DNA of 64,000 nucleotides from IMG/VR virus record IMGVR_UViG_3300012956_000018, positions 13,091 to 77,090 of that record. One strand, written 5' to 3'. The stretch is from a virus (lineage: Duplodnaviria; Caudoviricetes). This document shows, in pieces, positions 29,898 to 59,817 of this stretch. Each line of letters opens with the position of its first letter. Position 1 is the stretch's first letter. Below the pieces are notes generated by a model that saw nothing but the letters and a program-made list of their open reading frames with translations, was not told the origin of the DNA and made no database searches. A program made the translations under genes and the position numbers.

Positions 29898-30156
29898 TCG
29901 TTTTATTGTCTATTCTTTTGTGATCTAATTGATCTTGCATAATAAAGCTATGTTGAGGAAATATTATATTTGCAAATATTTCTTGCAAAGCGTGAGCCTC
30001 TCCTAGAGTTATATTATATATACTGTTTGTATTACTTGAGTAGGCTACTACAACAATTGAATCTATAGTATTATTTTCGTTAAATTCTGCTAGTTTATCT
30101 ATAGATGTAGATATCTGTTTTAATAAATCGTTTCTAGAAATCATATTTGTTCCCAC
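29863..30156 (-). CDS. Hypothetical protein
   Basis: 97-aa ORF overlapping the terminase stop; converges on the spanins. Confidence 0.55.
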   Translation of the reverse strand: MGTNMISRNDLLKQISTSIDKLAEFNENNTIDSIVVVAYSSNTNSIYNITLGEAHALQEIFANIIFPQHSFIMQDQLDHKRIDNKTIIDDYSPEKSS

Positions 30157-36328: not shown

Positions 36329-36910
36329 TTAGCCATATAACAATATGTGGATTCTTATTGACTGAGGGCTAGATGTTGGTATAGATACTTTCTCCACATA
36401 ATTTGAGAACGACTGAGAATCATCTAAATGACTAGATAATCTTTCAAATATACCATCTTCAATGACTTTGGTCAGATTAGTTATGTCATAAGCTCTATAT
36501 ACTTTTAAATTATTCACATCATTATATATTGTTGTTTCATGTAAATAGTATATATATGCTATTTTAATTATTTTAATATTCTTTGCTACTTCCTCTGGTA
36601 CATTTATCTTGGACCAAGATCTTCCTGATTTTATTGGTGAGGATAAGTGATTAGATATATTATTAGCAAATTCATAAGCTTCAGGAGATTTATACATTCT
36701 TCCTATTTTACGATTTATGCGATATACATCTCCTGCTGTGATAAGTGTATTATCCTTTATAGTAGACCATATACACTCGGCATATCTTAATTTTAAATCT
36801 TTATTTATTACTTCAATAGGTGGGTGAAGTATGCTAGGAATTTCTGACCATATTCTAGGTAGAGAATCTATAATAGGATATAATATATCATGATATATAA
36901 CATCACTCAT
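36329..36910 (-). CDS. Hypothetical protein
   Basis: 193-aa ORF coupled to the polymerase stop. Confidence 0.65.
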   Translation of the reverse strand: MSDVIYHDILYPIIDSLPRIWSEIPSILHPPIEVINKDLKLRYAECIWSTIKDNTLITAGDVYRINRKIGRMYKSPEAYEFANNISNHLSSPIKSGRSWSKINVPEEVAKNIKIIKIAYIYYLHETTIYNDVNNLKVYRAYDITNLTKVIEDGIFERLSSHLDDSQSFSNYVEKVSIPTSSPQSIRIHILLYG

Positions 36911-38855
36911 TAATAAATGTTCCTGTCAGTATTCCTGATTTTTTAATAATTGTAGATCCTATTTCCCTAGAATAAGATCTCTTTACTAGAAATAATTCAC
37001 TAAATGATGTATAGTATTCTTCTTGATCTGTTATAGTAATATTAATGTCTTTGCATATGCGATTTAGGGAAGAAACTAGAGCGGTTATGGAAGACTCCTC
37101 ACCTTCAATTTTGGCATCAATAGAGTAGGATCCGTCTTTATTAAGGACAATTGGACGAGTATTGTTATTGCCCACAAAACTCACTAACCTATTGCCTGCT
37201 GTACCTATTTCAAAATCAATCTTAGCTGGGAAATTCCATTCCTTCTGAGCCTGGTCCTCTGCTATTATAGGAATTTGATAACATACTGGGATAGCATGTT
37301 TAATATGCGTATCGATATCCCCAGCATCATGAGTAAAGCAATAAGGTTTAGCTATATAATTATTATCTTGAATGAATCTTGATATTCTGGCTATAGATAC
37401 GCCAGCTATTTGCGAGGCTCCATTTTGAACTGGGTAATTGCCACTTTGACGCTTGGCTTCTGCAATGGAGTACTCTTGAGACCTATCAAACGGAATAATG
37501 ATAGTATCGCCCCATAGAGTAGTGACTTCTCCTTTGGTAAGTACTTCTTCATGACGTGCTTTCCTCCATTCATCTATACGAGGAAACATTCCAAAGAATC
37601 TCTCGAAGAAATCTGTAGCTGCTGCTAAATTGCCATTCATAAATGAGTCAGCAAATGCCTGGTAACTCTGGCCGTAAATCGCTCCGAATGATGCTAATTT
37701 AGCAAATTTTCTCTCTTGATCAGTTACTTCATTTTCATTCTTGTTCCATATTTTAGATGCTACATACTTATGAATATCTTTACCATCTTTATACGCTTGT
37801 AATAATCCCTCATCCTGACACAATAATGCCAAAACTCTAATCTCTATTTGTGAATAGTCGAAATGGATTAATACACCATCTTCATAATATCTACTCTTTT
37901 GAATATTTCGTATTTCTGAATTGGCGGGGATTACATGAGCTGTTGATGTCCATCTTTTGGTTATTGCTGTATTAGCTCTGAATTCTGGACAGAATAAGTA
38001 ATCTTCACTAATATCTATATTTTCTTTATATGGAGATAGTCTTCTTACTAATCTGGAGTTTTGCATATCCAATCGTGAGACTACTTTAACCGACGACCTT
38101 CCAGGTGTCCCCCATATGTAGGTATTCTTGGCTTTTTGTATTTTCTTGAATAGTCTGTAATAAAGAATAGTTTCTGCTTCTTGAGTATAAGTTTTAGAAT
38201 TATCTATATCTACTCCCATGTAGGTTATAATAGATATAAATAGCTCATGAAGAATTTCGTGGCTAGTTCCTTCTAATACATAATTAGAATATTTTGAAAT
38301 TAAATTTAGTTCGCTGTTTGTAAATATATTATCTTTATATAAGCTAGGGATACTATCTCTAATGGTATCTAAAACTTCAAGTTTACTATTTCTTTTGATT
38401 ATTGGATTTGATTCTTCTGAAGATGTTTCTGCTATCAACTGAAGCATCATAGATAAATTAGGATAATCACTATTTTCTGAATTTGATAAGATTTCTGATT
38501 TTAGCTTATTTAACATTAAGCACATCTTGAGTCTTTTTGTTATTAAGATAGACTCGAATTTTGCTCTAGCATTCTTGTCTGATGCTTCAGGATTAAAAAT
38601 CGATTTTAGTACATTTATATCTGTAGTAGCTTGAATATTTATTATATCTTGAGTAGATATATTAAGAATATTGATTACATGAGGAAGAAGCAGTAATTTC
38701 TTTAATACTTCAATAGCTAGATCTGTATAAATAAAATCTAGTTTAGTAGCTTCTTCATCATCCCATCGTATACCATTTAATTGTAGTTCGTACGATAGAT
38801 AATTATGTTCGTTGAAGTATGAAGCAGTCTTAAGCAGATCTTTTTGTAAGCTCAT
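36903..38855 (-). CDS. polA: Family A DNA polymerase, polymerase portion
   Basis: Motif A DYSQIEIR, motif B RKFAKLASFGAIYG, NYPVQ, motif C THDA. Confidence 0.92.
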   Translation of the reverse strand: MSLQKDLLKTASYFNEHNYLSYELQLNGIRWDDEEATKLDFIYTDLAIEVLKKLLLLPHVINILNISTQDIINIQATTDINVLKSIFNPEASDKNARAKFESILITKRLKMCLMLNKLKSEILSNSENSDYPNLSMMLQLIAETSSEESNPIIKRNSKLEVLDTIRDSIPSLYKDNIFTNSELNLISKYSNYVLEGTSHEILHELFISIITYMGVDIDNSKTYTQEAETILYYRLFKKIQKAKNTYIWGTPGRSSVKVVSRLDMQNSRLVRRLSPYKENIDISEDYLFCPEFRANTAITKRWTSTAHVIPANSEIRNIQKSRYYEDGVLIHFDYSQIEIRVLALLCQDEGLLQAYKDGKDIHKYVASKIWNKNENEVTDQERKFAKLASFGAIYGQSYQAFADSFMNGNLAAATDFFERFFGMFPRIDEWRKARHEEVLTKGEVTTLWGDTIIIPFDRSQEYSIAEAKRQSGNYPVQNGASQIAGVSIARISRFIQDNNYIAKPYCFTHDAGDIDTHIKHAIPVCYQIPIIAEDQAQKEWNFPAKIDFEIGTAGNRLVSFVGNNNTRPIVLNKDGSYSIDAKIEGEESSITALVSSLNRICKDINITITDQEEYYTSFSELFLVKRSYSREIGSTIIKKSGILTGTFINE

Positions 38856-40302
38856 ATATTGTTAGTTCGTGCAGTCTTCTAGTATTCCAAGAATCTCGGC
38901 AGCAATATTCTCCTACTAACTCTGCCGGACTTTGAGTAAATTTAGCTTCAGTGCTTCCTATTTCATGAGATTCTTGTAGAATCTTGAGCAAGTTAATCCA
39001 TGTTCTATCTTCTGGTATATTATATAGATATGCAGTGTCTTTTATATACTTTAGAGAAGTAATCAAACTGGTATCTTTGTCGTTTATATGATTATATTTT
39101 CTTTTAATATTTTTTAATTCTTCTACTGATAATGACGTAACATTTATGCTCGAATCTTCTTCACATGCTAAAGATTCTTGATCTTCGTACTTTTTAATAA
39201 CATTATTAAATCCATCAGATTCGATAATTTGCATATAATAGTTCTGATATTTAACTCCCTTTCTCCATCTGGGTTTAGTTAAATTAATAACGTTGGTTAA
39301 ATTAATAAGCCACTCATTATGATAATCTGTCCATCTTCTTTCATTTAAATAGAGGGCAGATATCTCCTTAAGTCCGCCAGTCCAGTTTAATACTCTACAG
39401 TACTGCATAGTATCCTGTAATCTAAGCAATTCTATATTAAATATATTAAAAGAAGCTGGTACTTCGTAACATAAATTAAATACTGCTACTTTATTCTGAT
39501 TTCTACCAAGAAATTCTTTTATTTTTAATTTTATACTATCTTCTATAATACCATCATAGTTATCAAAATGTTTAAATGCCATATATGCAGCATAGCCACT
39601 CCTAGCAAATGATATGCCGGCAATATGAAAATCTTTGCTCAGAGTTTCTAGTGAAGATCCTTCTATATCATACCCGATTAATTCAGCATCTTCAAACTTA
39701 TTTAAGAATTCATCTATTTTATCTGGATAATAGATGTCGAATTTCATCTCTTCAGTATTCTGATCTTTTAGAATACTGGGGCTTGCTGCAATTATTGCTT
39801 CTTTTATCTGAGAGAGCCACTTGTTATATTGATGTCCACTAGATCCACCCTGCCTTAGTATATAAGAAGGATGCCAGCATACTCTGATAGGTATATCTTC
39901 AAATTTGAAAGTATGATTAGAAGCGAATGCTCCTACTGACCAATCAAATATATCAGTAAGAGCCGAAGCTGCTGTACCACCTAAACAGAGAATTGATTTA
40001 GGATTACATAATCTGATATCTTGTTTAACTATCTCTCTATATTCTAGTATTTCTTCTTGAGAAGGAGTTCTATTAGATTTATTATCGTCTTCAAGAGGTC
40101 TATATGGTACTGTATTAAATAGCCTAACTTTATCTAACGTCAATCCCAGTTCTTCTAAAGCTGATCTAAATAGTTGCCCTGATCTTCCTATCAAGGGTCT
40201 TAGCTGTGAGTCTTCTTCTTGACCAGGTGCTTCTGCTACAACATATATAAGAGGATTATCACTGCCTTCAGGAGGAACAAATCTATCACTAAGACTAGCC
40301 AT
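38830..40302 (-). CDS. Family-4 UDG-like domain fused to a 3'-5' exonuclease (N-terminal portion of an SPO1-type PolA)
   Basis: AEAPGQEED...PLIGRSG and WHPSYILR (UDG-4); YDIEG, FN..YE and YCCRDS (ExoI-III). Confidence 0.88.
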   Translation of the reverse strand: MASLSDRFVPPEGSDNPLIYVVAEAPGQEEDSQLRPLIGRSGQLFRSALEELGLTLDKVRLFNTVPYRPLEDDNKSNRTPSQEEILEYREIVKQDIRLCNPKSILCLGGTAASALTDIFDWSVGAFASNHTFKFEDIPIRVCWHPSYILRQGGSSGHQYNKWLSQIKEAIIAASPSILKDQNTEEMKFDIYYPDKIDEFLNKFEDAELIGYDIEGSSLETLSKDFHIAGISFARSGYAAYMAFKHFDNYDGIIEDSIKLKIKEFLGRNQNKVAVFNLCYEVPASFNIFNIELLRLQDTMQYCRVLNWTGGLKEISALYLNERRWTDYHNEWLINLTNVINLTKPRWRKGVKYQNYYMQIIESDGFNNVIKKYEDQESLACEEDSSINVTSLSVEELKNIKRKYNHINDKDTSLITSLKYIKDTAYLYNIPEDRTWINLLKILQESHEIGSTEAKFTQSPAELVGEYCCRDSWNTRRLHELTIYELTKRSA

Positions 40303-42242: not shown

Positions 42243-42281
42243 TGGGCCTCGGGCCTTGCCCGGCCTTATGTTAAGAAGCGC
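42243..42281. repeat. 39-bp GC-rich direct repeat, copy 1
   Basis: TGGGCCTCGGGCCTTGCCCGGCCTTATGTTAAGAAGCGC, identical to 56655-56693. Confidence 0.95.
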
Positions 42282-46687: not shown

Positions 46688-46880
46688 ATTTCTTCTTCAA
46701 CCAGAAATATATATCGCCGAGAATCAATACTGGCCAGGCGAATACTGATAACAAGACTATACAAATTGTTACTATAATCTTAATAAACTTATCAGTTTTA
46801 ATTCCTGGAGATTTGAATATCCAAGATAAAGTATAAATGATTCCTAACAGTATATAGCAGTATATTAAAGTATTATTCAC
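46674..46880 (-). CDS. Small two-TM membrane protein
   Basis: Two hydrophobic segments ending AWPVLILGD. Confidence 0.6.
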   Translation of the reverse strand: MNNTLIYCYILLGIIYTLSWIFKSPGIKTDKFIKIIVTICIVLLSVFAWPVLILGDIYFWLKKKYVTY

Positions 46881-48777
46881 TTATCTCACCTGCCTTAGGC
46901 ATTTTTGATTCTATTTCCTCATATTCCCAATTAACTAATTGAAATTTACTTCTAAAATACTTGATTAATTCAGAGTACGCTTCTGATAGAAATTCCTTAT
47001 CTTTAAGTGCATCTGCCCATCTATAGCTTTTGTTAGATATTAACTTGTCTTTTAATGAATACCATCCAGAGCCAGAATTAATTATATCCAATGCTCCGGC
47101 TATAGTAAGTAATTCTTCGTCAGGAGATAATTTACCACCTAGAGTATCATAAATAAATATATTTACTCCCGACACAGATGGCATAAATTTAGATTTATCT
47201 ACTCTAATAACAGAATTAGTGCCTTCTTTAAAATATTCATTCTGACCTATCTTTTTGCCGCCTGAAAAATAAATGCTATAATGGATATTATGATCTTTAG
47301 CGTACCCTCCAGTAGATCCTTCTCCTGAAGTATATCTACCTATTTCCATTCTGGCTTGATTAATAAGTATCAGACTAGTATTTTTATTATCCCACATTAA
47401 TCCTAATATTTTATTTAGATGCTGTCCTAATACTCTAGGTTTAGCCATCATTCCTGCTGCAAATTCAATAGCTTGTCTATCTTTACTTATAGCATCTTGC
47501 ATGGCATTCCACTCTGCTTGTACTCCTGATGCAGTAATAGAATCCCATATTCCTAAGATATATACATCTTTATCTTTAAAAGATGACACATACTTAGAAA
47601 ATACTGAAAATGCTTGCTCTACAGTAATAGCAGGTCCTATAGCTACTCTTGAATCACCATTCTCTATTACTTCAGATTTAGTATCTGTACCATATCTAAT
47701 TCCTGGGGATATATTGAAGACTCGTCTTAGCCTAAGATCATCAGCTGATTTTTCAGCATCTAAGATAATAAGACGAGCTTTATTTCCATAATCTTCTAAA
47801 AACATTTCTGCCGTCTGATATGCCGTAGTAGATTTTCCTGAATTATGAACAAATACTCCGGTATTATTTCCTAAATCAATGCAGAAATTATTATAGTTTT
47901 CAACAGATATATCATAAACATATTCTTCAATATCCAAATATTCTATATTAATAATTTTGTGGTTATTGCCTTTTCTAGGAGGATTATCTGAAGTATTTCT
48001 TTTTATACATAATTGTCTAGATTTTCCTTTCCAAGCCAGTCCTTCTTCAGTATTTTTCCATATTCTATGCCCTTCCCACATTCCTTTCTTTGAAATATTC
48101 TCTATACCATGCAATTTTGCATGTTCAGATTTATTAGTAATTAGTAGATTTAGTGGTCTATTATCATTATGATTATTATTTGTATGATGTATCTCAATAT
48201 TCTTAGGTAAGAATTTTCTTTCCTCTCTTGATAAATAATGAAATGCTACCATATATGGTACAGAATCATAATCTTCTCTACTTGAGCCATAGGATGTAGC
48301 TTGAATTTCTTCAGAATCTCTGTATTTTGAATACATAGCCATTAAGCTATCTCCAATTTTAAGATTCTTAGCTTCCACATAACTGCCATCAAACATCATC
48401 CATTTGTGGTCATCAGTACATATTACTGGTTGGCTGGCTTTCTGATTGTAGATAGATTTACCATATCTACGTTTACCATTATCTAAAGTAATTTTAATCA
48501 ATTTATTACTTAATTTCTTATTAGCAAATCTAGCTTTACCTGGTACTATCTGATTTCTTGCAAGATCATAAGAATACACCCAGAATTCTTCTGATCCTTC
48601 AAGTTCCTTAATTAACTTAGATGTACCATCTAAGCACTTAATTAGAGTATCGCCATGCAAACATTTAGGTCCTCCCCACAACTCAATCATTGTACCCCAA
48701 TTAAATCCTCCTGCTCCTACAGCATTGATAGTATTAATAGGAGTTCTTATTTTATGATAATGAATACCGTTAATCAT
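46873..48777 (-). CDS. recA: RecA/UvsX-like recombinase containing an intein
   Basis: GTMIELWGGPK-[intein]-SGKSTTA, LDAEKS, WDSI, LINQAR, GGYAKDH and VDKSKF. Confidence 0.9.
   Translation of the reverse strand: MINGIHYHKIRTPINTINAVGAGGFNWGTMIELWGGPKCLHGDTLIKCLDGTSKLIKELEGSEEFWVYSYDLARNQIVPGKARFANKKLSNKLIKITLDNGKRRYGKSIYNQKASQPVICTDDHKWMMFDGSYVEAKNLKIGDSLMAMYSKYRDSEEIQATSYGSSREDYDSVPYMVAFHYLSREERKFLPKNIEIHHTNNNHNDNRPLNLLITNKSEHAKLHGIENISKKGMWEGHRIWKNTEEGLAWKGKSRQLCIKRNTSDNPPRKGNNHKIINIEYLDIEEYVYDISVENYNNFCIDLGNNTGVFVHNSGKSTTAYQTAEMFLEDYGNKARLIILDAEKSADDLRLRRVFNISPGIRYGTDTKSEVIENGDSRVAIGPAITVEQAFSVFSKYVSSFKDKDVYILGIWDSITASGVQAEWNAMQDAISKDRQAIEFAAGMMAKPRVLGQHLNKILGLMWDNKNTSLILINQARMEIGRYTSGEGSTGGYAKDHNIHYSIYFSGGKKIGQNEYFKEGTNSVIRVDKSKFMPSVSGVNIFIYDTLGGKLSPDEELLTIAGALDIINSGSGWYSLKDKLISNKSYRWADALKDKEFLSEAYSELIKYFRSKFQLVNWEYEEIESKMPKAGEISE
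47842..48663 (-). mobile_element. Intein (274 aa) with HNH endonuclease in the RecA P-loop
   Basis: Begins CLHGDTLI, CTDDHKW, HNH EIHHTNNNHNDNRPLNL, ends GVFVHN followed by Ser+1. Confidence 0.93.
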
Positions 48778-50001: not shown

Positions 50002-51072
50002 TTAAACCGGGCCAAACTCAAACGGTTGACTAACAATATTCACTCTTATGTCTTTAGTTATCTCTGAATTTAATAATTTTAAATAGCTATCTGTTGACTT
50101 GCCTAAGTATTCTTTATTATTTATTGTTGCTTGATATCCATTTCTAGGCCTACCTGTTCCTATTAGATTCTTAGTCTTAAAATATTTATAGAATTCACAC
50201 AATGAATGCTCAATACATCTCTTAGTAAGATAAGGTAATTGAAGATATTGAAATGTAATGTAAGGAAATCCTATAGTATTTTTATTATAATAATCAAATT
50301 GATGTTCAAATAAATGATTTAATATATTTATATACTTATCATAAGTATTACTTGATGGTCCTGGGCTGATGATATCTAGTGCATATGAGCATCCTGGTCC
50401 TATATTTACAAAACTATCCTCATCGAATTGTTTTAATATACTTGTATATATTAAATCACAGAATATTTCGTATGCTACAAAATCTCCAATACCTGGAGCG
50501 CACCCCTTAATTATATCAAACGCCTCCTTACCAGTATTAGTATTACGTAATTTATTTACGTAAGATTCTCTATTCTTGTGAGTCTCCAAAAATCCTTTCA
50601 TAAATCTGTTAGATTTACTATCTTTAGCATAGTATGGTATTCCTGGGTAGTCGTCCACCTTCCAAGATTTAATGCTATTGACCATATGCGCATTAGTGAA
50701 TAATCCCATTTTCTGCTCTTGATCGTATAACAGATGCTGGAGATAGTCTATTACTTCTGGTGTATTGTTGTCATTTAGAATATTAAATGCTGGCTTTATA
50801 GATTCTAGAGTTTCTATTTTATTATAGAATCTGTGAAATACTATTAATAAGAATTTTGTATTATCATCTTGTATCTTGGATAGTATTTCATTGTGAAGAT
50901 ATAAAGATCCTCTATCTAACATTCTATATACATTTGTGAATTTAAAATTCAGAAATATATCATCATTAGTCCAGGGAGGATTTTGTTTAAGTATATATCT
51001 CTTATACCATATTAGATGCCGATCATATATAAATTGCCAAAATTCATCTGCCCTCTGTTCATTCAGCATCAT
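50002..51072 (-). CDS. 5-hmdU DNA kinase-like (aGPT-Pplase family) helical protein
   Basis: FW.FIYDRHLIWYKR....PPWT.D.IF..FKFTNVYR.LDRG, GIGDFVAYEI.CDL, GPG and IEHSLCEF.KY. Confidence 0.82.
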   Translation of the reverse strand: MMLNEQRADEFWQFIYDRHLIWYKRYILKQNPPWTNDDIFLNFKFTNVYRMLDRGSLYLHNEILSKIQDDNTKFLLIVFHRFYNKIETLESIKPAFNILNDNNTPEVIDYLQHLLYDQEQKMGLFTNAHMVNSIKSWKVDDYPGIPYYAKDSKSNRFMKGFLETHKNRESYVNKLRNTNTGKEAFDIIKGCAPGIGDFVAYEIFCDLIYTSILKQFDEDSFVNIGPGCSYALDIISPGPSSNTYDKYINILNHLFEHQFDYYNKNTIGFPYITFQYLQLPYLTKRCIEHSLCEFYKYFKTKNLIGTGRPRNGYQATINNKEYLGKSTDSYLKLLNSEITKDIRVNIVSQPFEFGPV

Positions 51073-52117
51073 TTACCAATCCTTGTAAATTCATTATCAA
51101 AGATTCTGGATATTCGAATGTATTTAACAAGTTTTTCATATTATTATTGAAGTGATCGTCTTTAGTTTTAGTAAGTATCCAACCGAACGTAGAATTCAAT
51201 TTAGGCCTTATTTTAATATTATCATTAAATGAAGATATTTTCTTACTAAGATCTTTGTCGTATGAATATGGAAATTGATCTTTATTATTAACAATATCTG
51301 CTATTTCATAAATAACATTTAAATCATCTAATAAAACATGTAATGGTGAATGTTCGAAGCTAGGCTCAGTTGGATTATCAGATCTAGCAAGTTTATAATT
51401 GCAATTTCTGATCTTCTGAGCTCTGTCAAAATGTCTATCATAAATATGAAGACTTGTTCTATGTGTTACTAGTGAGCCTATCTTCATTCCTAAAGATCCT
51501 GCCATTATATCAAGTAACATAGACCATTCAAATTGATTTATCATGTCTCCCCATATAAGATCATTACTTCTGATACTTACATGAAGATATAAATATCCAT
51601 TCCTATGAATAAAGTGCAGCCAATTATTACATGGGATATCTTTTGTTTTCCCCATAGCATTTACGTCTTTTACTGGGTCCCATATAGTTATAACTGCTTG
51701 CCTTGTATTAGGATCTTTTGATAATGTGTTATATATAAACTGTAACTGATCTATACTATGCACCACACCAGATTCTTCGCACCCTGTAGCATGTCTAAGC
51801 CGCCCACCATACCCAGCTCTCCAATTAAGGCCATTATCACTGAAATCACTAGCTCTAGGTAAGTAGTGAGATAGCCATCCAATATCTCTTTTCCCTACCA
51901 ATACCCATAATGTCTCAGCAAGCAGCGCATATATATTATGTTTTCTTTCGAAATTTAAAGAATATCTATGCTTTGGATAATTTATTATTGATGTGGTAAA
52001 TAATAATTCTTTAGTATTACCAATAATATTACCATCTTCTAAGACACATTCACATGCTAGTGATAGCCACTCATCATATGTATTTTCATGAATAGCGGTA
52101 GAATTACTTATTTCCAT
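51059..52117 (-). CDS. Thymidylate synthase homologue, probably dUMP hydroxymethylase
   Basis: GYGGRL, DPNTRQAV..IWDP, DIPCNN (catalytic Cys), RSNDLIWGDMIN with Asn at the position equivalent to E. coli ThyA N177. Confidence 0.82.
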   Translation of the reverse strand: MEISNSTAIHENTYDEWLSLACECVLEDGNIIGNTKELLFTTSIINYPKHRYSLNFERKHNIYALLAETLWVLVGKRDIGWLSHYLPRASDFSDNGLNWRAGYGGRLRHATGCEESGVVHSIDQLQFIYNTLSKDPNTRQAVITIWDPVKDVNAMGKTKDIPCNNWLHFIHRNGYLYLHVSIRSNDLIWGDMINQFEWSMLLDIMAGSLGMKIGSLVTHRTSLHIYDRHFDRAQKIRNCNYKLARSDNPTEPSFEHSPLHVLLDDLNVIYEIADIVNNKDQFPYSYDKDLSKKISSFNDNIKIRPKLNSTFGWILTKTKDDHFNNNMKNLLNTFEYPESLIMNLQGLVNDAE

Positions 52118-52713
52118 AACTGCCTATCTAATAATGTGTAGTATAATCTATTTACTCTTTCTTCTATACTAGGTACTTTAATATTAAGACTGTCTTTAGG
52201 AGTATAGTATCTATATGAATCTGTATATTTATCTAATAAGCTATCTAGAATATATTGATATCCCATATGCCAAGAATCATTTAATACTCGTTTACCATTG
52301 TCTAGTCTCATCAACTCTGATGAGTAGTCATATTTTACTACAAAATCTACTGAACATAAATTAGCTATTGATATATCAAATAATTCTTTATTTAATTCAA
52401 CATCATGATTCCATGCTGAACATTGTATTATATAGTATACATATGAATCAATACTCAATCTGTCAGTAACCCATGGTCCAGGAGTTTCACTCATGATGGT
52501 AAATCTATCTTTAATCAAGGATTCATGAAATTTTATTCCTTCTCTAGGATAGTTTACACAATACCTTAATATATCATAGTGATTATATAGACTGTGTTCT
52601 TTCATATACCTAGAAGTAGGTATTTCTAAGTAGTTTATACCAAACTTGTCAGCAAATGCCTTAGCTACAGAGGTCTTCCCTGATGCAGCTGGCCCTGTAA
52701 TACCTATCTTCAT
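52108..52713 (-). CDS. P-loop nucleotide monophosphate kinase
   Basis: ITGPAASGKTS, VTDRLSIDSYVY and RLDNGKR. Confidence 0.8.
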   Translation of the reverse strand: MKIGITGPAASGKTSVAKAFADKFGINYLEIPTSRYMKEHSLYNHYDILRYCVNYPREGIKFHESLIKDRFTIMSETPGPWVTDRLSIDSYVYYIIQCSAWNHDVELNKELFDISIANLCSVDFVVKYDYSSELMRLDNGKRVLNDSWHMGYQYILDSLLDKYTDSYRYYTPKDSLNIKVPSIEERVNRLYYTLLDRQLWK

Positions 52714-53297
52714 GATATACCAACCTCATCTAGCATAGATTGATGAATACATCTTGCTTTATGTTTAAATTCAGTATCTTGTAACTTTGAAAATGCAGTA
52801 ATTGCCATATTAGTGGCAGCAGATATCAAATCTGCATCTCTATTACCTAGTGCATACTCATTACAAACATCATATGTCCAATCAAGAATATCCGCTAATT
52901 TCACTATTTCCTTTATATGAGTAAATGCAGTATCCTTCAATTTTGATGCTATAGGATATTCTTTAGATAAGTAATATTTACCGACACTATCTACAATCTT
53001 CTTTAAATCTGGGTTTGGATGTCGTTTAACATCATGTCTTATATCCCCAGTAAATACTTCTTCTAAGTCATGAACTGATGCATATAGCAAAATGAGTTTT
53101 ACTAAGCTATCATATTCGTGATCTAATAATTTGTCTTCTAGTAATAGCAGACACCAATGAATTACTCTAAAATGATGTTCAGCCACATTAGGTTTGTCAT
53201 GAAGAAAATGGCCGGACCATCTAGATATATATCTAGATTTATTTACTGTATTTATAGATAATAATTCTATATTATCTTTAGATTCTTGTGAGCTCAT
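52710..53297 (-). CDS. HD-domain 5'-deoxynucleotidase (YfbR-like)
   Basis: RW...NVAEHHF, HDLEEVFTGDI and VKLADILD. Confidence 0.88.
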   Translation of the reverse strand: MSSQESKDNIELLSINTVNKSRYISRWSGHFLHDKPNVAEHHFRVIHWCLLLLEDKLLDHEYDSLVKLILLYASVHDLEEVFTGDIRHDVKRHPNPDLKKIVDSVGKYYLSKEYPIASKLKDTAFTHIKEIVKLADILDWTYDVCNEYALGNRDADLISAATNMAITAFSKLQDTEFKHKARCIHQSMLDEVGIS

Positions 53298-54420
53298 TTA
53301 ACACTTGTCTACCAATATTGTGAAATTCATGATCTAGTAGAATATTATTCGCTTCTTGTCTAATTTCTTCTAAATTATTATCACTACTTAACAAGATATC
53401 TGCTACTTCCTTGCCCGATCCGGCCACTAAGCAATTGACTCCATGTCTCATCAATCCAGAATCAGTACGTATCCAATCTTTATTTAAAACACATATCGAT
53501 CCAGCATCAAATGCTTCTAAGAATGTATACTGAGTTCCATCCCCATCATTTTTTATGGTACTCATATCCACCATAAACCTAGCAGTATTACACATCTCAG
53601 CACCAGCTCCAAATTCTAATGGAAATCCTCTCATTCCTTGTTTCCATTCTAAATATGCTCTAGGAGCTAGGAATTTATAGTGAGAATATAGTCTATTGTT
53701 TTCTGATCCTACTATACTAATAATTTTATTAATAGGTACAGAGCTCATTTTCTCTACTAATTTTTCGTGTTCTATACAGAATTGTTCATACTGAGTATCC
53801 GATGGAGGCAGTTTAGTATGCTTTGTATCACTAAATTCCTCACAGACATCCTCATAGCTCTTATTCCAATATTTAGCTGCTAGATATCTATTGGCATCTA
53901 ATACCATATGGATATTTTTATCGTAATCTATTCTAGATGTACATACTGCTAGAGCTGGTCTTTCTAATTTTGATAAACTTTGTTCTGATGAATATTTCCT
54001 AACATATGGATGCTTGATAAAAATGCTGCCTGGAATTAGATTTCTGACCCTTTCTCTGATAACTATAGGCGATTTGATGCTCTTTATATCATATTTTGCA
54101 TGTTTTAGTTCATTTGGATCATGAATTACTATTCTAGCATTATATGTATTAATAAGCAATGCCACATCATCAGCACAGTGCTTATCACTGGCTACAATAA
54201 GATTAATACTATCCTTACACTGATCTGGCAAATCAACATTCTTGATGTAAGACATAGGCAGACCATATTGAAAGCTCTTATTTCTATTAGTCCTACCCAT
54301 ACCAGCTTTAAGTATCTCTACTTCGCATCCAGTAGATTTTAGAGCATGATATAAATGAGCTGTATATACTGCCCATCCACCTGTGTTCTTACCACATTCG
54401 TAGAATAAATTTATCTTCAT
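53278..54420 (-). CDS. Divergent GT-B glycosyltransferase-like protein
   Basis: GGWAVYTAHL, IHDPNE, SRIDYDKN, GTQYTFLEAFDAG (E-x7-E-like region) and HGVNC. Confidence 0.75.
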   Translation of the reverse strand: MKINLFYECGKNTGGWAVYTAHLYHALKSTGCEVEILKAGMGRTNRNKSFQYGLPMSYIKNVDLPDQCKDSINLIVASDKHCADDVALLINTYNARIVIHDPNELKHAKYDIKSIKSPIVIRERVRNLIPGSIFIKHPYVRKYSSEQSLSKLERPALAVCTSRIDYDKNIHMVLDANRYLAAKYWNKSYEDVCEEFSDTKHTKLPPSDTQYEQFCIEHEKLVEKMSSVPINKIISIVGSENNRLYSHYKFLAPRAYLEWKQGMRGFPLEFGAGAEMCNTARFMVDMSTIKNDGDGTQYTFLEAFDAGSICVLNKDWIRTDSGLMRHGVNCLVAGSGKEVADILLSSDNNLEEIRQEANNILLDHEFHNIGRQVLNELTRI

Positions 54421-55538
54421 TTAATATACTCTAATAAATTTTCAATATACTTTTTACTAGTATAAGTAGATTGAAAATGTTGGTGTATAAATTGTCTATC
54501 TAAAGACCTAGCTCTTTTACATGCAGTGCGATATGCATCTATAGCCGAATTATATCTCTTGCGGTAAGTATATGCCGAATAGCCAGTTTTGTCTTCAATA
54601 ATAAATTCCTGAGCCCCGTGTGGAGTATTAGATATCAGAGTTATGGCTGGTATTCCTAATTTCTGTGATTCAAATAGTGATAAAGGATATGATTCATCAT
54701 TATTAGCATTTAAGCATGCTATGCTACTTGTCATGATAGAATAGAGATCAGGAGGATACATAGGTCCTATATAATGAATATTATTTTTAGTATATTGACT
54801 ATCAGTAGTATTGGAAAGCCACGGCTTAATTTTAGCGTCGTACCATGAATCTTCACTTCCAGTATTTTGCTGTTTATTGCCTATAATAATTAATTCTTCA
54901 TCCCAATCTTTAAACACATCAACAAGAAAATCCACATGCTTATCTGGGGCTATTCTGCCTACATAAACATAGTATGAAGGTGTATTTAATAGTTGAAAAT
55001 CCCCAACACTTATATAATTAGGACTCAAGACTCCGGAAATAGCGTCTGGCAATACTGCATTGATACTATTTTTGCAGAATTCTGATACTGCTAGCACATG
55101 ATAGTTATTCCTACTTCTAGCAATATCTAGAAGTGATTTTTGATAATCATACGAATTCCTAAAATATAAAATAACATGAGTCATTTTGATAATAGAGCAA
55201 TTGAATGAACTTGCTATTTTCTTATTTAAAGGTAAATTAGTAAAATTATCAATAACTAAATCAAATTTATGAGATTTACTCAAATGTTCGATAGCAGATT
55301 GAGTCTCGCCAGTAGAATATCTACTGCCTAAATTGTTCTTTACTATGTATTCTTTACTAAAATCACCATGTATTACAGTATCGCCTATTATCTCTGAATC
55401 CTTACTACACAATAAAAATACTGAATGCCCTTCAGATGTTAGTAATTTATACATATCTGAAGCATATTTTTCTATACCACCTACTGCCCCACTATTAAGG
55501 AGTGGGAAATATACATTGCTAGTTACAAGAATTTTCAT
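54417..55538 (-). CDS. GT4-family glycosyltransferase
   Basis: GGIEKY, VSEFCK, YVGRIAPDKH and ESYPLSLFESQKLGIPAI. Confidence 0.88.
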   Translation of the reverse strand: MKILVTSNVYFPLLNSGAVGGIEKYASDMYKLLTSEGHSVFLLCSKDSEIIGDTVIHGDFSKEYIVKNNLGSRYSTGETQSAIEHLSKSHKFDLVIDNFTNLPLNKKIASSFNCSIIKMTHVILYFRNSYDYQKSLLDIARSRNNYHVLAVSEFCKNSINAVLPDAISGVLSPNYISVGDFQLLNTPSYYVYVGRIAPDKHVDFLVDVFKDWDEELIIIGNKQQNTGSEDSWYDAKIKPWLSNTTDSQYTKNNIHYIGPMYPPDLYSIMTSSIACLNANNDESYPLSLFESQKLGIPAITLISNTPHGAQEFIIEDKTGYSAYTYRKRYNSAIDAYRTACKRARSLDRQFIHQHFQSTYTSKKYIENLLEYIK

Positions 55539-55756
55539 AACTTATTACCTAAAATTCTCCATAGCTTATTACCATGTTCTTTTCTTCCTTCTATTTCTAT
55601 ATTATGCTTCTTTAGTAACTTATATAAATGAGATCTATTAATTTTAAGTTGCTTAGATACTGCCACTATTACCCATTTATTATGGTTACAGACTTCAATT
55701 AAATACTCTCTAGTCTGTTTATATATAAATTCTTTATAAGGAAGAAATTCAGACAT
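55535..55756 (-). CDS. Fis-like HTH protein
   Basis: REYLIEV...N.W.I..VSKQLKINRSHLYKLLKKH matches the Fis/NtrC HTH; likely start MSEFLP at 55756. Confidence 0.75.
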   Translation of the reverse strand: MSEFLPYKEFIYKQTREYLIEVCNHNKWVIVAVSKQLKINRSHLYKLLKKHNIEIEGRKEHGNKLWRILGNKL

Positions 55757-56621
55757 CTGACAAAATAGATATATAATTGTCAAATAATTTAAGAATATGC
55801 TCACTATCTAGTTGTTTTTGATTAGATTCTATACTAGGATGATACCTTATATTATTTACTTTTCCACCTATAGTTACTCCTACAGGTGGATTAATCATAT
55901 CATATTTAATATGATGTTTATTACATAGTGTTATTAGAAATGGAATAACTTCTATATCAGTTATTGGAGCAATATTATATGTTCCAAATATACTATTTTC
56001 TATAGATTTCACTATAGCAGTTAATATCCAATCTACTGGATAGAAAGATCGCATCATACCTGGTAGATTATGTATATGAAATATATCATTAAATACTTCA
56101 GCCCTAGCCATAGACCAAAATACATTAGGATATCCAGAAGTTAGTTTATTGATAATCTCTCTGTGATATTCATATGCCCCTACTGGATTAGCAAATCTAA
56201 GAATAGTATGATTATCAGTATATCTTTTAGTTATATATTCACCAACTAGTTTAGTATCTCCATAAACCATTTGAGGATTAATTTCCCCGTTATCATCATA
56301 TATAGCATAGGATGATGCATATATAACTGACTTAAATTCATTAGATTTCAGCAATTCATGATATTTTGAACAGTTATTATTATAATAATAGTGTGATATC
56401 TCTTCTCCTTCAGTAGTAGATGCTGCAGCTGCTAGATGAATAAGTACATCATATCTCTTATTTGTAATATTACAAATATCATCTTGTATTAAATCTACTC
56501 TAGGCTTTATTGTTGAATCAAAATCTACACAGGTAATGTTTATATCGCGTAAATAATTCTTTATATTATGATATACGACTCTGCCTATATATCCTTCAGA
56601 TCCAGTAATCATAATTTTCAT
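55749..56621 (-). CDS. NAD-dependent NDP-sugar epimerase/dehydratase (extended SDR)
   Basis: TGSEGYIG, VLIHLAA, YASS, YGDTK (YxxxK) and LRFANPVG. Confidence 0.9.
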   Translation of the reverse strand: MKIMITGSEGYIGRVVYHNIKNYLRDINITCVDFDSTIKPRVDLIQDDICNITNKRYDVLIHLAAAASTTEGEEISHYYYNNNCSKYHELLKSNEFKSVIYASSYAIYDDNGEINPQMVYGDTKLVGEYITKRYTDNHTILRFANPVGAYEYHREIINKLTSGYPNVFWSMARAEVFNDIFHIHNLPGMMRSFYPVDWILTAIVKSIENSIFGTYNIAPITDIEVIPFLITLCNKHHIKYDMINPPVGVTIGGKVNNIRYHPSIESNQKQLDSEHILKLFDNYISILSDV

Positions 56622-56654
56622 ACAAATCTCTTAAATCTTATAGCGTTGTAATAA

Positions 56655-56693
56655 TGGGCCTCGGGCCTTGCCCGGCCTTATGTTAAGAAGCGC
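56655..56693. repeat. 39-bp GC-rich direct repeat, copy 2
   Basis: Identical to 42243-42281; overlaps the stop codon of the GT at 56683. Confidence 0.95.
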
Positions 56694-57864
56694 TTATAGC
56701 GCCCATGCCACGTGTATCAACTGGTATATTTTCTCTGGCGATGTTGATAGAAAATAGCTTATCTGCTAAATTAATTATAGAATTTGAATATTTTTTAGCA
56801 GAATATTTTATCGAAAAATCTTCTTTTATTTTAGAATTATCTAATTTATTGCACAAATATGCTGCATGTAAGAATTTGTCTTTTATACTCGTAAATCTAT
56901 TTCTATAAGAATCAATATTATATCCATTAAATCCATCTTCTATAAAATCACATAATCCTGAACGTATTTTCTTATAATGAGATATTACTGGAGTACCAAC
57001 ACTTAGTGCTTCTAGAGATGAATATCCTATGGATTCTCCTACTGCTGGAGACACATATACTGAATGCCTAGATAGTTCTTTGTATAGTAGTTCATGAGAT
57101 ATATTACTTGTAATAATATTTATATTGCTAGAAGAATTAATAATAGGCAAAATAATATCACTAAACCATTTAGACTCTATTATAGGAAATTTCGACGGTT
57201 CTCCTATTATAGTAAGATTAAATTCAGTATTCTTAAATATATTTACTAGATTTTCTATTTCTTTATCTCTGGATATCCTGCCCGTATATATTACAGAATT
57301 ACTATATCTACTATCGCTTATATCAGTAGATACTGGAACATAAGACGGGACAATAGTACAATCTACTACATCGGATAATACTGAATTAATATTATCTTTA
57401 ACAAATGAAGAAACAGCAGCTACTTTAAAATTACTGTGTTTAGATTTAATGTCTAAAATATACTTATAAAATAAACTATCATATTTCCATATAATATATG
57501 AGTGAGCAAAGTATATTGTAGGATAATCAAGACTAGCTATGTATCTCAATGCTCTAATACTGCCAGTACTAGATAATATTAAATCTGGATTCAGACTCTT
57601 AATATCTGTAAGGTATTTATGATAATTTTCTGTTGGATTGAAGTACTTTATAGTAGGATCATATAGAAGCTTACTGTACTTACTAGCAGCAGGCCAAGGT
57701 ATAAATCTATCTTTTATAACAGAATCCGAAGGTCCAGATAAATATACATCATGGCCGCTATGAACTAGGGCTTTATATGTATTTATAGTAAATGTTTCCA
57801 TTCCACTTTTGTAATTATCAAACTCTAGTGGATTAAAAACATTGCCCATTATTAATATTTTCAT
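56683..57864 (-). CDS. GT4-family glycosyltransferase
   Basis: SGMETF, VSSFVK, YTGRISRDKE and ESIGYSSLEALSVGTPVI; paralogous to 54417..55538. Confidence 0.88.
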   Translation of the reverse strand: MKILIMGNVFNPLEFDNYKSGMETFTINTYKALVHSGHDVYLSGPSDSVIKDRFIPWPAASKYSKLLYDPTIKYFNPTENYHKYLTDIKSLNPDLILSSTGSIRALRYIASLDYPTIYFAHSYIIWKYDSLFYKYILDIKSKHSNFKVAAVSSFVKDNINSVLSDVVDCTIVPSYVPVSTDISDSRYSNSVIYTGRISRDKEIENLVNIFKNTEFNLTIIGEPSKFPIIESKWFSDIILPIINSSSNINIITSNISHELLYKELSRHSVYVSPAVGESIGYSSLEALSVGTPVISHYKKIRSGLCDFIEDGFNGYNIDSYRNRFTSIKDKFLHAAYLCNKLDNSKIKEDFSIKYSAKKYSNSIINLADKLFSINIARENIPVDTRGMGAISAS

Positions 57865-58490
57865 ACAGTAGCATTCTTAGTTAGAGATATTAACATCTCT
57901 CTCTTAAGATAATCGTGATCTAATCTTACGTAAGGAGTAATATGAAACATTAATTTAACTATTTCAGCAGGATCCCAATATGCTACTGATCCCCTCTCGT
58001 CTACTGGCTGTATAGAGGATGATAGAGTAAATACTGTTCCAATATTAGAACTATTATACATCTTGGTAATTTTTTCTACTACTGAGTCTAAATTATGATC
58101 GTAATTTAGTGCCCCAATATTAGCTACTATATCCATATTGCCTAAATCTATCATATTAAAGTAGTCACCGCAGATAATAGTAACTCTCTCATCAGTAGTT
58201 ATGTCTTTATCTATTAAATCAATAACATTTTGTGCTATATCTACTCCTGTATAGTGATCTATTTCAATTAATTTTTCTAATTCAGAAAACAAATCACAAA
58301 ATCCACATCCTATATCTAAAATAGTGGATTTTAAACTGTGAGACCTTATCATATCATGAATGATTTCTGATGCCTTGATAGATCTAATTATTTTAGATTG
58401 TTCACTTCCATAATTGAGTGACTTAGAATTCTTGCCATGCTTAGCTGCTAAATCATTAAACAGAGACTTTTCAAATTCACTATTGTTCAT
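57861..58490 (-). CDS. Class I SAM-dependent methyltransferase
   Basis: ILDIGCGFCDL, YTGVDI, ICGDY and VANIGALN. Confidence 0.88.
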   Translation of the reverse strand: MNNSEFEKSLFNDLAAKHGKNSKSLNYGSEQSKIIRSIKASEIIHDMIRSHSLKSTILDIGCGFCDLFSELEKLIEIDHYTGVDIAQNVIDLIDKDITTDERVTIICGDYFNMIDLGNMDIVANIGALNYDHNLDSVVEKITKMYNSSNIGTVFTLSSSIQPVDERGSVAYWDPAEIVKLMFHITPYVRLDHDYLKREMLISLTKNATV

Positions 58491-59167
58491 TATTGAATCC
58501 TACTGATTTCGTTGATATACTGACTAGGATCAGATTCCCTACAAATGATTTCTAAAATACTGCCACCATAATTTATAAGAGATATATCTTGATATGATAT
58601 AAATATATCATCTGGCAATTTTGAAGAATCTATGTACTTCTTACCATCAGACCCAGATAAATACACATTTCCCCCTTGATTTTTAGTGATATTTATTAAT
58701 CTACTTGTTGGGTCTTCTTGTGTAATAGAGGAATCTACTACTAATTTAGAAGAATCCATTTCTAAGATATGTAGTAAACAATAAATAGCAGATATTGATA
58801 ATGCTGAAAACTTGCCTGTTAATACATGTTCTGGTGGATTATTTAGAAAGGATATTAGGGGGAATAATCGCTTAGCATATGGATACTTTTTTACTGAGTA
58901 ATTATGCCTAATAGTTTCAGATAATTTCTTCAGAGTTTTATTTAGATCTACTACATATAAATTCTGTATAATATTGATATTATGCTTTAATGTAACTGGA
59001 CACGATAGCCATTTATCTGCTTTTTCTCCTATTCTAGTTCTAGTCAAAAATCCTCTATTTGGTGGCTGTATACCATCAAATATTACGAATTTATCAGATA
59101 AATTATACTTGGCAAAGAATCCGGACCATGGTAAGAAGTTAGGTTGATGTACTGCTACTATTGTCAT
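58490..59167 (-). CDS. WbqC-like protein
   Basis: VHQPNFLPWSGFF.K, FVIFD, R..I...WL..PV and YLSG..GK.Y. Confidence 0.88.
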   Translation of the reverse strand: MTIVAVHQPNFLPWSGFFAKYNLSDKFVIFDGIQPPNRGFLTRTRIGEKADKWLSCPVTLKHNINIIQNLYVVDLNKTLKKLSETIRHNYSVKKYPYAKRLFPLISFLNNPPEHVLTGKFSALSISAIYCLLHILEMDSSKLVVDSSITQEDPTSRLINITKNQGGNVYLSGSDGKKYIDSSKLPDDIFISYQDISLINYGGSILEIICRESDPSQYINEISRIQ

Positions 59168-59817
59168 ATTCTTATCCTACTAATTTCATATACTTCAGCA
59201 TATCCATGAAATCTTCCATGAGTCCAGGCGTCAGCTTTACTGATTTCCATTATTCTCTCTAGCCATATATCACTACCATATTTATCTATCTGTGATTTAT
59301 GATATTTTAATGAATCTATTTTCAGAGAGATATGAGACTTGTCTAGAGGCACTATAAGATTAGGAGTAAATACTCCTAAACTCATAGTACTGGGAGCAGT
59401 GGGCTTAAAGAATATTAAATTGTTTATCAATCTAGAGGACGCACATACTGCTCTACATACTGCATTGTGATCTTGATGAGAATCAGATGGATGATGAGTA
59501 ATAATAGTATTTATATTATTATTTTTTACTAAATTATCTATATCTTTTATCATCTCAGTTAGAAATAAGTAAAGTTGTGTATCTTGATAATCTTTATGGT
59601 AAATTTTATTATGAGAATGCGTCTCATCACTTGAATTTAGCAGAATATTTAATGCTTGCTGTGATTCAATAAATCTATAAGAGAGATTATGAGTCATAAT
59701 CATTATTGATGGAGAGTTATTTTCTCTACTAATCTTAGAAATCAGTCCTCCAGCATTAATTTCTGCATCATCTGGATGTGCCGTTACGATTAACACATTA
59801 CCTAGACTTATATTCAT
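59164..59817 (-). CDS. PIG-L/LmbE-family N-acetyl-sugar deacetylase
   Basis: AHPDDAEINAGG, THHPSDSHQDH and YHKSQ. Confidence 0.9.
   Translation of the reverse strand: MNISLGNVLIVTAHPDDAEINAGGLISKISRENNSPSIMIMTHNLSYRFIESQQALNILLNSSDETHSHNKIYHKDYQDTQLYLFLTEMIKDIDNLVKNNNINTIITHHPSDSHQDHNAVCRAVCASSRLINNLIFFKPTAPSTMSLGVFTPNLIVPLDKSHISLKIDSLKYHKSQIDKYGSDIWLERIMEISKADAWTHGRFHGYAEVYEISRIRI

Follow-up and report, generated by a model that had tools for sequence, protein, structure and literature searches.

A probable thymidine-hypermodification operon that combines hydroxymethyluracil and sugar-tailoring genes in an uncultured SP-15-like myovirus

We analyzed a 64,000-nucleotide stretch of viral DNA (hereafter, the window), corresponding to bases 13091–77090 of a 77,090-bp IMG/VR virus record (IMGVR_UViG_3300012956_000018) that is estimated to be ~70% complete. 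The minus strand between positions 50002 and 59817 of the window is filled by 12 co-oriented open reading frames (ORFs), and this run, noticed earlier in a preliminary description made from the sequence, was recovered in full, with Pfam backing most of the labels that had been given to its genes. Consecutive genes overlap by 1–56 nt (mostly 1–20 nt), the sole intergenic gap measures 61 nt (56622–56682), and the 12 genes form a real, translationally coupled operon. On balance, we favor reading this block as an operon with which an SP-15-like myovirus hypermodifies its thymidine, the end product being a tailored glycan on DNA. The genes, in the order in which they would be read, and the one repeated element among them are:

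59164–59817, minus strand: PIG-L/LmbE-family zinc de-N-acetylase, 217 amino acids (aa), PF02585 at 56 bits; overlaps the stop codon of the primase gene by 4 nt
58490–59167, minus strand: WbqC-family protein, 225 aa, PF08889 at 97 bits
57861–58490, minus strand: class I S-adenosylmethionine (SAM)-dependent methyltransferase (MT), 209 aa, Methyltransf_25/11/31/12
56683–57864, minus strand: GT4-family GT-B glycosyltransferase (GT4a), 393 aa, Glycos_transf_1 and Glyco_transf_4
56655–56693, minus strand: GC-rich hairpin element, 39 nt, with an exact second copy at 42243–42281
55749–56621, minus strand: NAD-dependent short-chain dehydrogenase/reductase (SDR) epimerase/reductase, 290 aa, PF01370 at 55 bits and RmlD_sub_bind
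55535–55804, minus strand: small ORF of 89 aa with a sub-threshold helix-turn-helix match; overlaps the 3′ end of the epimerase gene by 56 nt
54417–55538, minus strand: GT4-family GT-B glycosyltransferase (GT4b), 373 aa, Glycos_transf_1
53278–54420, minus strand: divergent retaining-type GT-B glycosyltransferase (GTx), 380 aa, assigned by an AlphaFold 2 (AF2) model and fold searches
52710–53297, minus strand: YfbR-like HD-domain 5′-deoxynucleotidase, 195 aa, PF12917 at 62 bits
52108–52713, minus strand: P-loop kinase, 201 aa, Walker A motif GPAASGKT
51059–52117, minus strand: thymidylate synthase (TS)-fold enzyme (TS homologue), 352 aa, PF00303 at 80 bits
50002–51072, minus strand: HMUDK_hel/aGPT-Pplase1-type helical protein, 356 aa, PF18723 at 161 bits

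The intergenic gap holds the hairpin repeat, which has two matches in comparison with 0 expected, the second copy lying in the gap upstream of gyrA. No T-run follows the hairpin, which is not a classical terminator and may serve in RNA processing or regulation. A promoter and terminator scan returned fewer promoter-like sites than shuffled sequences and no minus-strand terminator within the operon. The upstream primase named in the preliminary description is supported by a Toprim match and 35% identity to gp78 of Xanthomonas phage phiXF1, while two of its other labels are not borne out: the downstream 342-aa ORF (orf342), called a single-stranded DNA-binding protein (SSB), has no match in Pfam, NCBIfam or PHROG and none to the SSB region of Carin-5, and the 89-aa ORF, called a Fis-type helix-turn-helix protein, reaches only 19.9 bits to HTH_8 (Pfam cut-off 22) and has no PHROG match. 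The operon block as a whole had no megablast match among 50,697 phage records.

The nucleotide-level part of the operon consists of the TS homologue, the P-loop kinase and the HD nucleotidase. The TS homologue is 33% identical to PaMx11 gp51, 35% to RP13 ORF86 and 40% to its YungSlug homologue, its nearest solved structure is the CMP hydroxymethylase MilA, and it keeps a PCN motif with the catalytic Cys together with a uracil-specifying Asn at the position of MilA’s Asp. Because it groups with MilA and the PaMx11 gp51-type enzymes and has HMUDK_hel as a neighbor, we infer that its product is hydroxymethylated and that the enzyme is a dUMP 5-hydroxymethylase. The 201-aa kinase matches CMP/adenylate kinases (Pfam, PDB and NCBIfam) in its P-loop region only, with no match to the 5-hydroxymethyl-deoxyuridine (5-hmdU) DNA kinase (5-HMUDK) profile PF18748 and no BLASTP similarity to PaMx11 gp49; a word-indexed protein search returned the query itself only. 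Relatives of this kinase are found beside dUTPase and ThyX in phage RHph_X66 and beside TS and HD genes in EP_H11, Ab1-TPeters and RP13, and because of these neighborhoods it is more likely a deoxynucleoside monophosphate (dNMP) kinase for modified dUMP than a DNA kinase, in line with the nucleotide kinase label proposed earlier. The possibility that it is the kinase part of a divided 5-HMUDK was also considered and is less likely, given the same neighborhoods. The YfbR-like HD family likewise adjoins TS in PaMx11, Ab1-TPeters, EP_H11 and RP13, and the nucleotidase of the window presumably drains competing dTMP/dUMP.

The last gene of the operon (50002–51072) had been described as 5-hmdU DNA kinase-like, a label that has to be given up. 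Its sole family match is PF18723 (161.5 bits, cut-off 25; profile positions 3–274 of 281, protein residues 7–300), and its translation contains no Walker A motif (GxxxxGK[ST]). It matches PaMx11 gp50 (E = 2e-24) and not gp49, and is also a homologue of RP13 ORF120; of these two PaMx11 proteins, whose genes are adjacent, gp49 is the proven 5-hmdU DNA kinase (PMC8989533). Judged by its sequence, the protein is thus the helical domain only and not a kinase. The HMUDK_hel clade, formerly named aGPT-Pplase, is found fused to a kinase in SP10 gp186, and M6 gp55, whose placement in the PaMx11 gp50 family is by analogy only, is dispensable in vitro. As in the PaMx11 gp50–52 neighborhood, the TS homologue is next to HMUDK_hel (overlapping its start by 14 nt) and the HD gene lies two genes upstream. 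Residues C292, E293 and K296 are invariant in 26 aligned HMUDK_hel sequences, and the segment IEHSLCEF aligns, weakly (hhalign E = 0.036, probability 1.4%), with V-E243-T244-I-L-C247 of PaMx11 gp46, an amino acid:DNA transferase (AADT) in which Glu243 is a metal ligand and Cys247 the nucleophile that adds to C6 of the base (PMC11472151); the related 15599 Pplase2 is likewise Cys- and metal-dependent. An invariant Cys and Glu at the AADT spacing suggest a catalytic role rather than a passive helical domain, with HMUDK_hel as a putative Cys-dependent enzyme acting on 5-substituted uracil in DNA. Comparison of the HMUDK_hel profile with PDB returned nothing, and a related-locus search with the protein alone returned no relatives.

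GTx, the divergent GT-B enzyme (53278–54420), has no match in Pfam, NCBIfam or PHROG. Its AF2 model, built on 60 relatives (predicted local distance difference test, pLDDT, 90.8), adopts a GT-B fold according to structure searches, which bears out the fold proposed in the preliminary description, and its first-ranked fold neighbor is the T4 α-glucosyltransferase AGT (1xv5; Z 24.8, root-mean-square deviation, rmsd, 3.5 over 318 residues). An exhaustive HMMER search collected 550 representative relatives at E ≤ 1e-3, and tblastn against cultured phages found none. All five sampled GTx contexts adjoin HMUDK_hel and/or a TS homologue with HD, often together with a radical SAM/SPASM enzyme. For counts across loci, the best 80 of 283 IMG/VR matches were scored with home-made hidden Markov models (HMMs) alongside 48 viral control loci. 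HMUDK_hel is present in 26 of these 80 GTx loci, always on the same strand (26/26), directly adjacent in 16 and within 1.5 kb in 24; the TS homologue is present in 25, HD in 16 and the radical SAM enzyme in 22, and none of the four occurs in any of the 48 controls. The 27 core GTx/HMUDK_hel loci have no small P-loop kinase in common. These linkages, and not the fold, make GTx the best candidate for the DNA-proximal sugar transferase. As an observation in its own right, a cassette of HMUDK_hel, AGT-like GT-B, radical SAM/SPASM enzyme, TS homologue, HD and often PolA is widespread in uncultured phages (IMG/VR loci L067–L146; for example L067:8469–12800 and L085:8141–14900), without a conserved small P-loop kinase, and is probably another undescribed thymidine modification.

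The lineage of the phage bears on the target of these enzymes. Tail sheath and baseplate genes identify it as a myovirus, and its A-family polymerase, of the type fused to a uracil-DNA glycosylase (UDG), places it by sequence in the group of SP-15, YerA41, Carin-5 and RP13. In the window, the polymerase is encoded by two ORFs:

38830–40302, minus strand: UDG and 3′–5′ exonuclease ORF (Pfam UDG, DNA_pol_A_exo1)
36903–38855, minus strand: PolA ORF (Pfam DNA_pol_A)

The two ORFs lie in different frames and share 26 nt, whereas in phiXF1 a single 1100-aa gene aligns contiguously over the junction; the polymerase could be truly split, joined by a programmed frameshift or interrupted by an assembly error. 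Its best cultured matches are phiXF1 (36%), Rhizobium RHph phages, IME392, Ab1-TPeters, EP_H11, RP13, LIS04, phiLo and SP-15. The ‘SP-15-like’ group with a UDG-fused polymerase, for which the joint presence of dCTP deaminase, dUTPase and a TS homologue serves as criterion, was described together with the finding that ~70% of T is modified in YerA41 (PMC13697223). SP-15 DNA carries glucosylated, phosphoglucuronated dihydroxypentyluracil, ~75% of T in Carin-5 is replaced by a 1073-Da nucleoside consisting of an 88-Da linker, a phosphate, two hexoses (Hex), one N-acetylhexosamine (HexNAc) and a 216-Da residue (PMC12686479), and commercial polymerases failed to copy RP13 DNA.

Gene order is also common to the window and phiXF1: ligase, HU, primase, the island, orf342, RecA, exonuclease, gyrB, gyrA, polymerase, DnaB and terminase. 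The phiXF1 slot syntenic to the operon (L007 23668–32119) holds DUF3109, NADAR and nucleoside 2-deoxyribosyltransferase-like proteins as well as six ORFs without a detected family (five of them scanned), with a YfbR-like HD gene upstream of the primase. These different contents mark the primase-to-orf342 slot as a variable nucleotide/DNA-modification island, which in phiXF1 possibly encodes a different nucleotide or DNA modification system. Two other genes of the window contain inteins: a 1028-aa ORF at the position of the phiXF1 terminase large subunit (30141–33227, minus strand), with an HNH-type endonuclease in an intein at residues ~459–833, and a RecA-like gene (46873–48777, minus strand), with an intein at residues ~53–312 that has an HNH_3 match.

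The sugar and tailoring genes occupy most of the upstream part of the operon. GT4a and GT4b are paralogues (27% identical, E = 5e-35), and GT4a is 25% identical both to RP13 ORF112 and to the glycosyltransferase pair of Ab1-TPeters; the SDR epimerase, with weak GalE, heptose-epimerase and RmlD matches, may adjust a host nucleotide-sugar donor. The PIG-L protein (40% identical to RP13 ORF106) keeps the AHPDD and HQDH motifs and aligns to diacetylchitobiose deacetylase, its matches to BshB1/BshB2 being weak. The WbqC protein scores far above its cut-off (97 bits compared with 21.3) and has only WbqC proteins as atlas neighbors. Searches of PDB by sequence and by profile found nothing, and a word-indexed protein search found one relative. 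An exhaustive structural scan with its AF2 model (pLDDT 90) gave BshC as the best PDB fold match (4wbd; Z 12.0, rmsd 3.3, 209 of 225 residues), followed by class I LysRS (Z 10.3), GluRS (8.3) and MshC (6.5); Foldseek returned no match at E ≤ 0.001, so that the BshC match comes from the exhaustive aligner alone. WbqC–GNAT fusions occur, and in 33 of 48 viral WbqC loci the neighboring gene is PIG-L. We found no function for WbqC in the literature, and nothing there to confirm the glycine-transfer role given in the preliminary description. Its modeled likeness to BshC and aminoacyl-tRNA synthetases (aaRSs), together with its pairing with PIG-L, nevertheless places the earlier proposal of de-N-acetylation followed by aminoacylation on a better footing, with WbqC as a putative ATP-dependent ligase that would join an amino acid to the sugar amine so exposed. 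The PIG-L–WbqC pairing also occurs in a different phage lineage, as in Vibrio phage V-YDF132 (L008 11327–17322), where PIG-L and WbqC are followed by three unknown ORFs, a 513-aa glycosyltransferase and a ParB-like protein just before the terminase.

Two cultured relatives carry much of the same gene content. Ralstonia phage RP13 has homologues of PIG-L (40%), WbqC, GT4, TS (35%), the P-loop kinase, HD, HMUDK_hel, primase, DnaB and PolA. Escherichia coli phage EP_H11 encodes, on one strand, MT, an ORF without a Pfam family, a BCCT transporter, PIG-L, a second such ORF and a weak glycosyltransferase-like ORF, then HMUDK_hel, kinase, TS, HD, a short unscanned ORF, primase, helicase and polymerase; the MT-to-HD cluster spans ~9.5 kb and is interrupted solely by the BCCT gene and the two ORFs without a Pfam family. 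The betaine/carnitine/choline transporter of EP_H11 (308 bits; L065 1902–11440), located between MT and PIG-L, hints at an imported quaternary amine feeding its modification. Ab1-TPeters has the order kinase–TS–HD–primase, with its GT4 pair elsewhere.

A DNA target for the operon is backed by the SP-15-like polymerase, by the gene set common to RP13 and EP_H11 and by the linkage of GTx to HMUDK_hel and TS; for the GT4/PIG-L/WbqC tailoring trio it is predicted. In the pathway that we propose, the TS-fold enzyme would make 5-hydroxymethyl-dUMP, the 201-aa kinase would take it toward the triphosphate and the HD nucleotidase would remove competing dTMP/dUMP, after which the UDG-fused polymerase would insert the modified base and remove plain uracil. 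GTx and the Cys-bearing HMUDK_hel/Pplase1 protein would then put the first sugar on the 5-substituent; GT4a and GT4b would extend it with host UDP-sugars, adjusted by the epimerase; PIG-L would de-N-acetylate a HexNAc, WbqC would acylate the freed amine with an amino acid and MT would methylate the product. Bacillithiol and mycothiol are made in a fixed order by a GT4 enzyme (BshA/MshA), a PIG-L deacetylase (BshB/MshB) and a ligase (BshC/MshC), and the presence of a GT4, deacetylase and ligase set suggests that the tailoring in the window follows this order. A more specific version, which we put forward only tentatively, is a bacillithiol-like conjugate on DNA, in which 5-hydroxymethyluracil (hmU) would receive HexNAc from the AGT-like GTx together with a kinase-independent, Cys-dependent HMUDK_hel, and would then be deacetylated, aminoacylated by WbqC, methylated and extended by the GT4 enzymes. 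The earlier proposal that T is replaced by hmU bearing a tailored oligosaccharide survives in part: a thymidine-hypermodification pathway is backed by lineage, gene set and GTx linkage, while the direct linkage of a glycan to the hmU oxygen is not; the measured relatives have a C5-type linker plus phosphate.

Several observations weigh against this interpretation. No enzyme for either the C5-type linker or the phosphate of the measured SP-15-like relatives is evident in the window, and the glycan genes of Carin-5 (cytidylyltransferase, glycerol-3-P dehydrogenase, polysaccharide deacetylase and other glycosyltransferases) are not homologous to those found here. Searches of the 77-kb record (~70% complete) found no dUTPase (PF00692) or dCMP deaminase (PF00383), the TS homologue being present, no 5-HMUDK (PF18748) or AADT (PF18724), and no match to the AGT profile PF11440 at E ≤ 10. 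The fold ranking of GTx does not single out a DNA-modifying enzyme, because T4 AGT is within 1 Z of the non-DNA GT4-like structures 6eji and 9v0l, TarM and HepE, and Foldseek puts AGT 16th. The enrichment of HMUDK_hel and its companions in GTx loci over control loci (Fisher P = 1.4e-6) comes from loci that are phylogenetically non-independent and from controls that are not random phage DNA, and the weak HMUDK_hel–AADT alignment was used for the coincidence of the E-x3-C motif alone. Finally, the hmU core and the tailoring genes are joined only in the window, in RP13 and partly in EP_H11: TS, HMUDK_hel and GTx are in 0 of 48 viral WbqC loci, PIG-L, WbqC and GT4 are in 0 of 80 GTx loci, and the trio in other viral contigs sits in ordinary nucleoside diphosphate (NDP)-sugar clusters (Glf, PseB-like, DegT, GT2, UDP-GlcNAc 2-epimerase) without TS or HMUDK_hel, which indicates that the tailoring genes are not DNA-specific by themselves. 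Examples of such clusters in IMG/VR are L029:6045–13491, where WbqC and PIG-L accompany Glf, a PseB-like dehydratase, a DegT aminotransferase and GT2, and L052:7883–15733, where PIG-L, MT and WbqC are found together with GT2, a TylF-type MT, a GT1-like enzyme and UDP-GlcNAc 2-epimerase.

These sugar-cluster contexts count in favor of an alternative, raised in the preliminary description for virion proteins and host surface polymers, in which the operon is divided in function, with TS, kinase, HD, HMUDK_hel and perhaps GTx modifying DNA, and PIG-L, WbqC, MT, GT4a, GT4b and the epimerase building a glycan on virion proteins, on the host envelope or on a soluble bacillithiol-like metabolite; GT4, PIG-L and a BshC-like protein are, after all, a bacterial soluble-thiol enzyme set. 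We nonetheless regard a division of this kind as less likely, because the sugar sub-block is translationally coupled to the upstream primase with no classical terminator before the hmU genes, because PIG-L, MT and glycosyltransferase genes recur within the HMUDK_hel/kinase/TS/HD clusters of RP13 and EP_H11, and because genes for a flippase, a lipid carrier or secretion are absent; Vibrio phages put PIG-L–WbqC–glycosyltransferase beside a ParB-like gene in the replication/packaging module. Still more doubtful is a route through an amine donor, in which the amino sugar is soluble, the 201-aa P-loop protein acts as the kinase for hmU in DNA and HMUDK_hel swaps the phosphate for the amine exposed by PIG-L, giving an N-linked glycosamine on the 5-methylene. 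Such chemistry would parallel the transfer of glycine, serine, putrescine or diaminopropane by Pplase2, and the Pplase superfamily moves amine-bearing small molecules onto 5-phosphomethyl-deoxyuridine (5-PmdU) via a Cys–C6 adduct; HMUDK_hel keeps the E-x3-C motif and is fused to a kinase in SP10 gp186, and PIG-L, kinase and HMUDK_hel occur together in the window, RP13 and EP_H11. Set against these parallels, the kinase family accompanies dUTPase/ThyX in RHph_X66 and does not resemble proven 5-HMUDKs, the 27 core GTx/HMUDK_hel loci do without a conserved small P-loop kinase, M6 gp55 (assigned to the PaMx11 gp50 family by analogy) is dispensable in vitro, and three GT-B enzymes and WbqC would be left without a clear order. 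That there is no hypermodification at all, but an ordinary thymidylate synthase, an ordinary salvage kinase and HD protein, and sugar genes acting as auxiliary metabolic genes, is very improbable: TS enzymes, too, have the uracil-specific Asn and the catalytic Cys, and the contig came from a metagenome assembly while RP13, YerA41 and Carin-5 DNA resisted standard library preparation, yet no role other than in hmU-derived modification is known for HMUDK_hel (161 bits), the TS homologue falls closer to PaMx11 gp51-type enzymes and MilA than to ThyA, and the polymerase is the UDG-fused type of the T-modified group.

We know of no enzymes that have been assigned to building the sugar-laden thymidine of SP-15, YerA41 and Carin-5, and, read as a hypermodification operon, the 12 genes offer a compact, ordered candidate pathway for it. 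Three assignments can be tested: an AGT-like GT-B family linked genetically to HMUDK_hel and TS, a ligase role like that of BshC for WbqC once PIG-L has acted, and HMUDK_hel as a Cys enzyme for which the DNA kinase is dispensable. Were the bacillithiol-like version true, thymine positions would carry an aminoacyl-amino-sugar oligosaccharide, a base not yet described, and the WbqC family and the HMUDK_hel clade would gain their first functions. Part of the gene set is present in the E. coli phages EP_H11 and IME392, making the chemistry testable in a tractable host. Furthermore, bases of this type block restriction enzymes and commercial polymerases, which bears on phage–host conflict, on under-sampling in sequence data and on DNA-labeling enzymology. 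The preliminary description’s suggestion of a new kind of system goes too far, since oligosaccharide thymidine hypermodification is known from SP-15, YerA41 and Carin-5 and the association of GT-B with ThyS has been reported at metagenome scale (Pyle et al., bioRxiv 2023.12.21.572611); a literature search on glycosylated hmU found nothing relevant. What is new in the operon is the combination of an hmU core, an HMUDK_hel-linked AGT-like glycosyltransferase and a bacillithiol-like amino-sugar tailoring set.

Among known systems, the SP-15-like phages share with the window the UDG-fused A-family polymerase lineage, a TS homologue, HD, and glycosyltransferase/deacetylase genes within the replication module, with RP13 and EP_H11 adding PIG-L, MT, GT4, kinase and HMUDK_hel, and Carin-5 having PolA, HD, TS, ligase and DnaB in common. 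The window differs from them in its two-ORF polymerase, in the added GTx family and in a second GT4. Modified thymidine is proven by mass spectrometry for SP-15, YerA41 and Carin-5, whereas for RP13, EP_H11 and IME392 it is predicted from genes. With systems of the PaMx11/M6/ViI type, the window shares the TS homologue, the YfbR-like HD protein and HMUDK_hel (PaMx11 gp51, gp52 and gp50, respectively), but in place of the PF18748 kinase, the PF18724 transferase and the pyridoxal phosphate (PLP), FAD, acetyltransferase and radical SAM tailoring genes it has sugar enzymes.

T4 AGT and the glycan pathways that phages build on 5-hydroxymethylcytosine (5hmC) likewise place a GT-B enzyme beside a pyrimidine hydroxymethylating enzyme, AGT being the tied-top fold neighbor of GTx, and the use of sequential glycosyltransferases with a partner epimerase follows the subclass I/II logic of Pyle et al. 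In contrast, the base in the window would be uracil-derived (Asn at the specificity site), GTx lacks AGT sequence membership and HMUDK_hel is an added partner; deacetylase/ligase/methylase tailoring is not described in the 5hmC glycan study (bioRxiv 2023.12.21.572611). The tailoring genes themselves resemble those of bacillithiol and mycothiol synthesis, with which they share GT4, PIG-L with its zinc-binding residues and, in the WbqC model, a fold of the BshC/class I aaRS type. At half the size of BshC, WbqC resembles it at the level of fold only, and the acceptor in the window would be a DNA base instead of malate or inositol phosphate.

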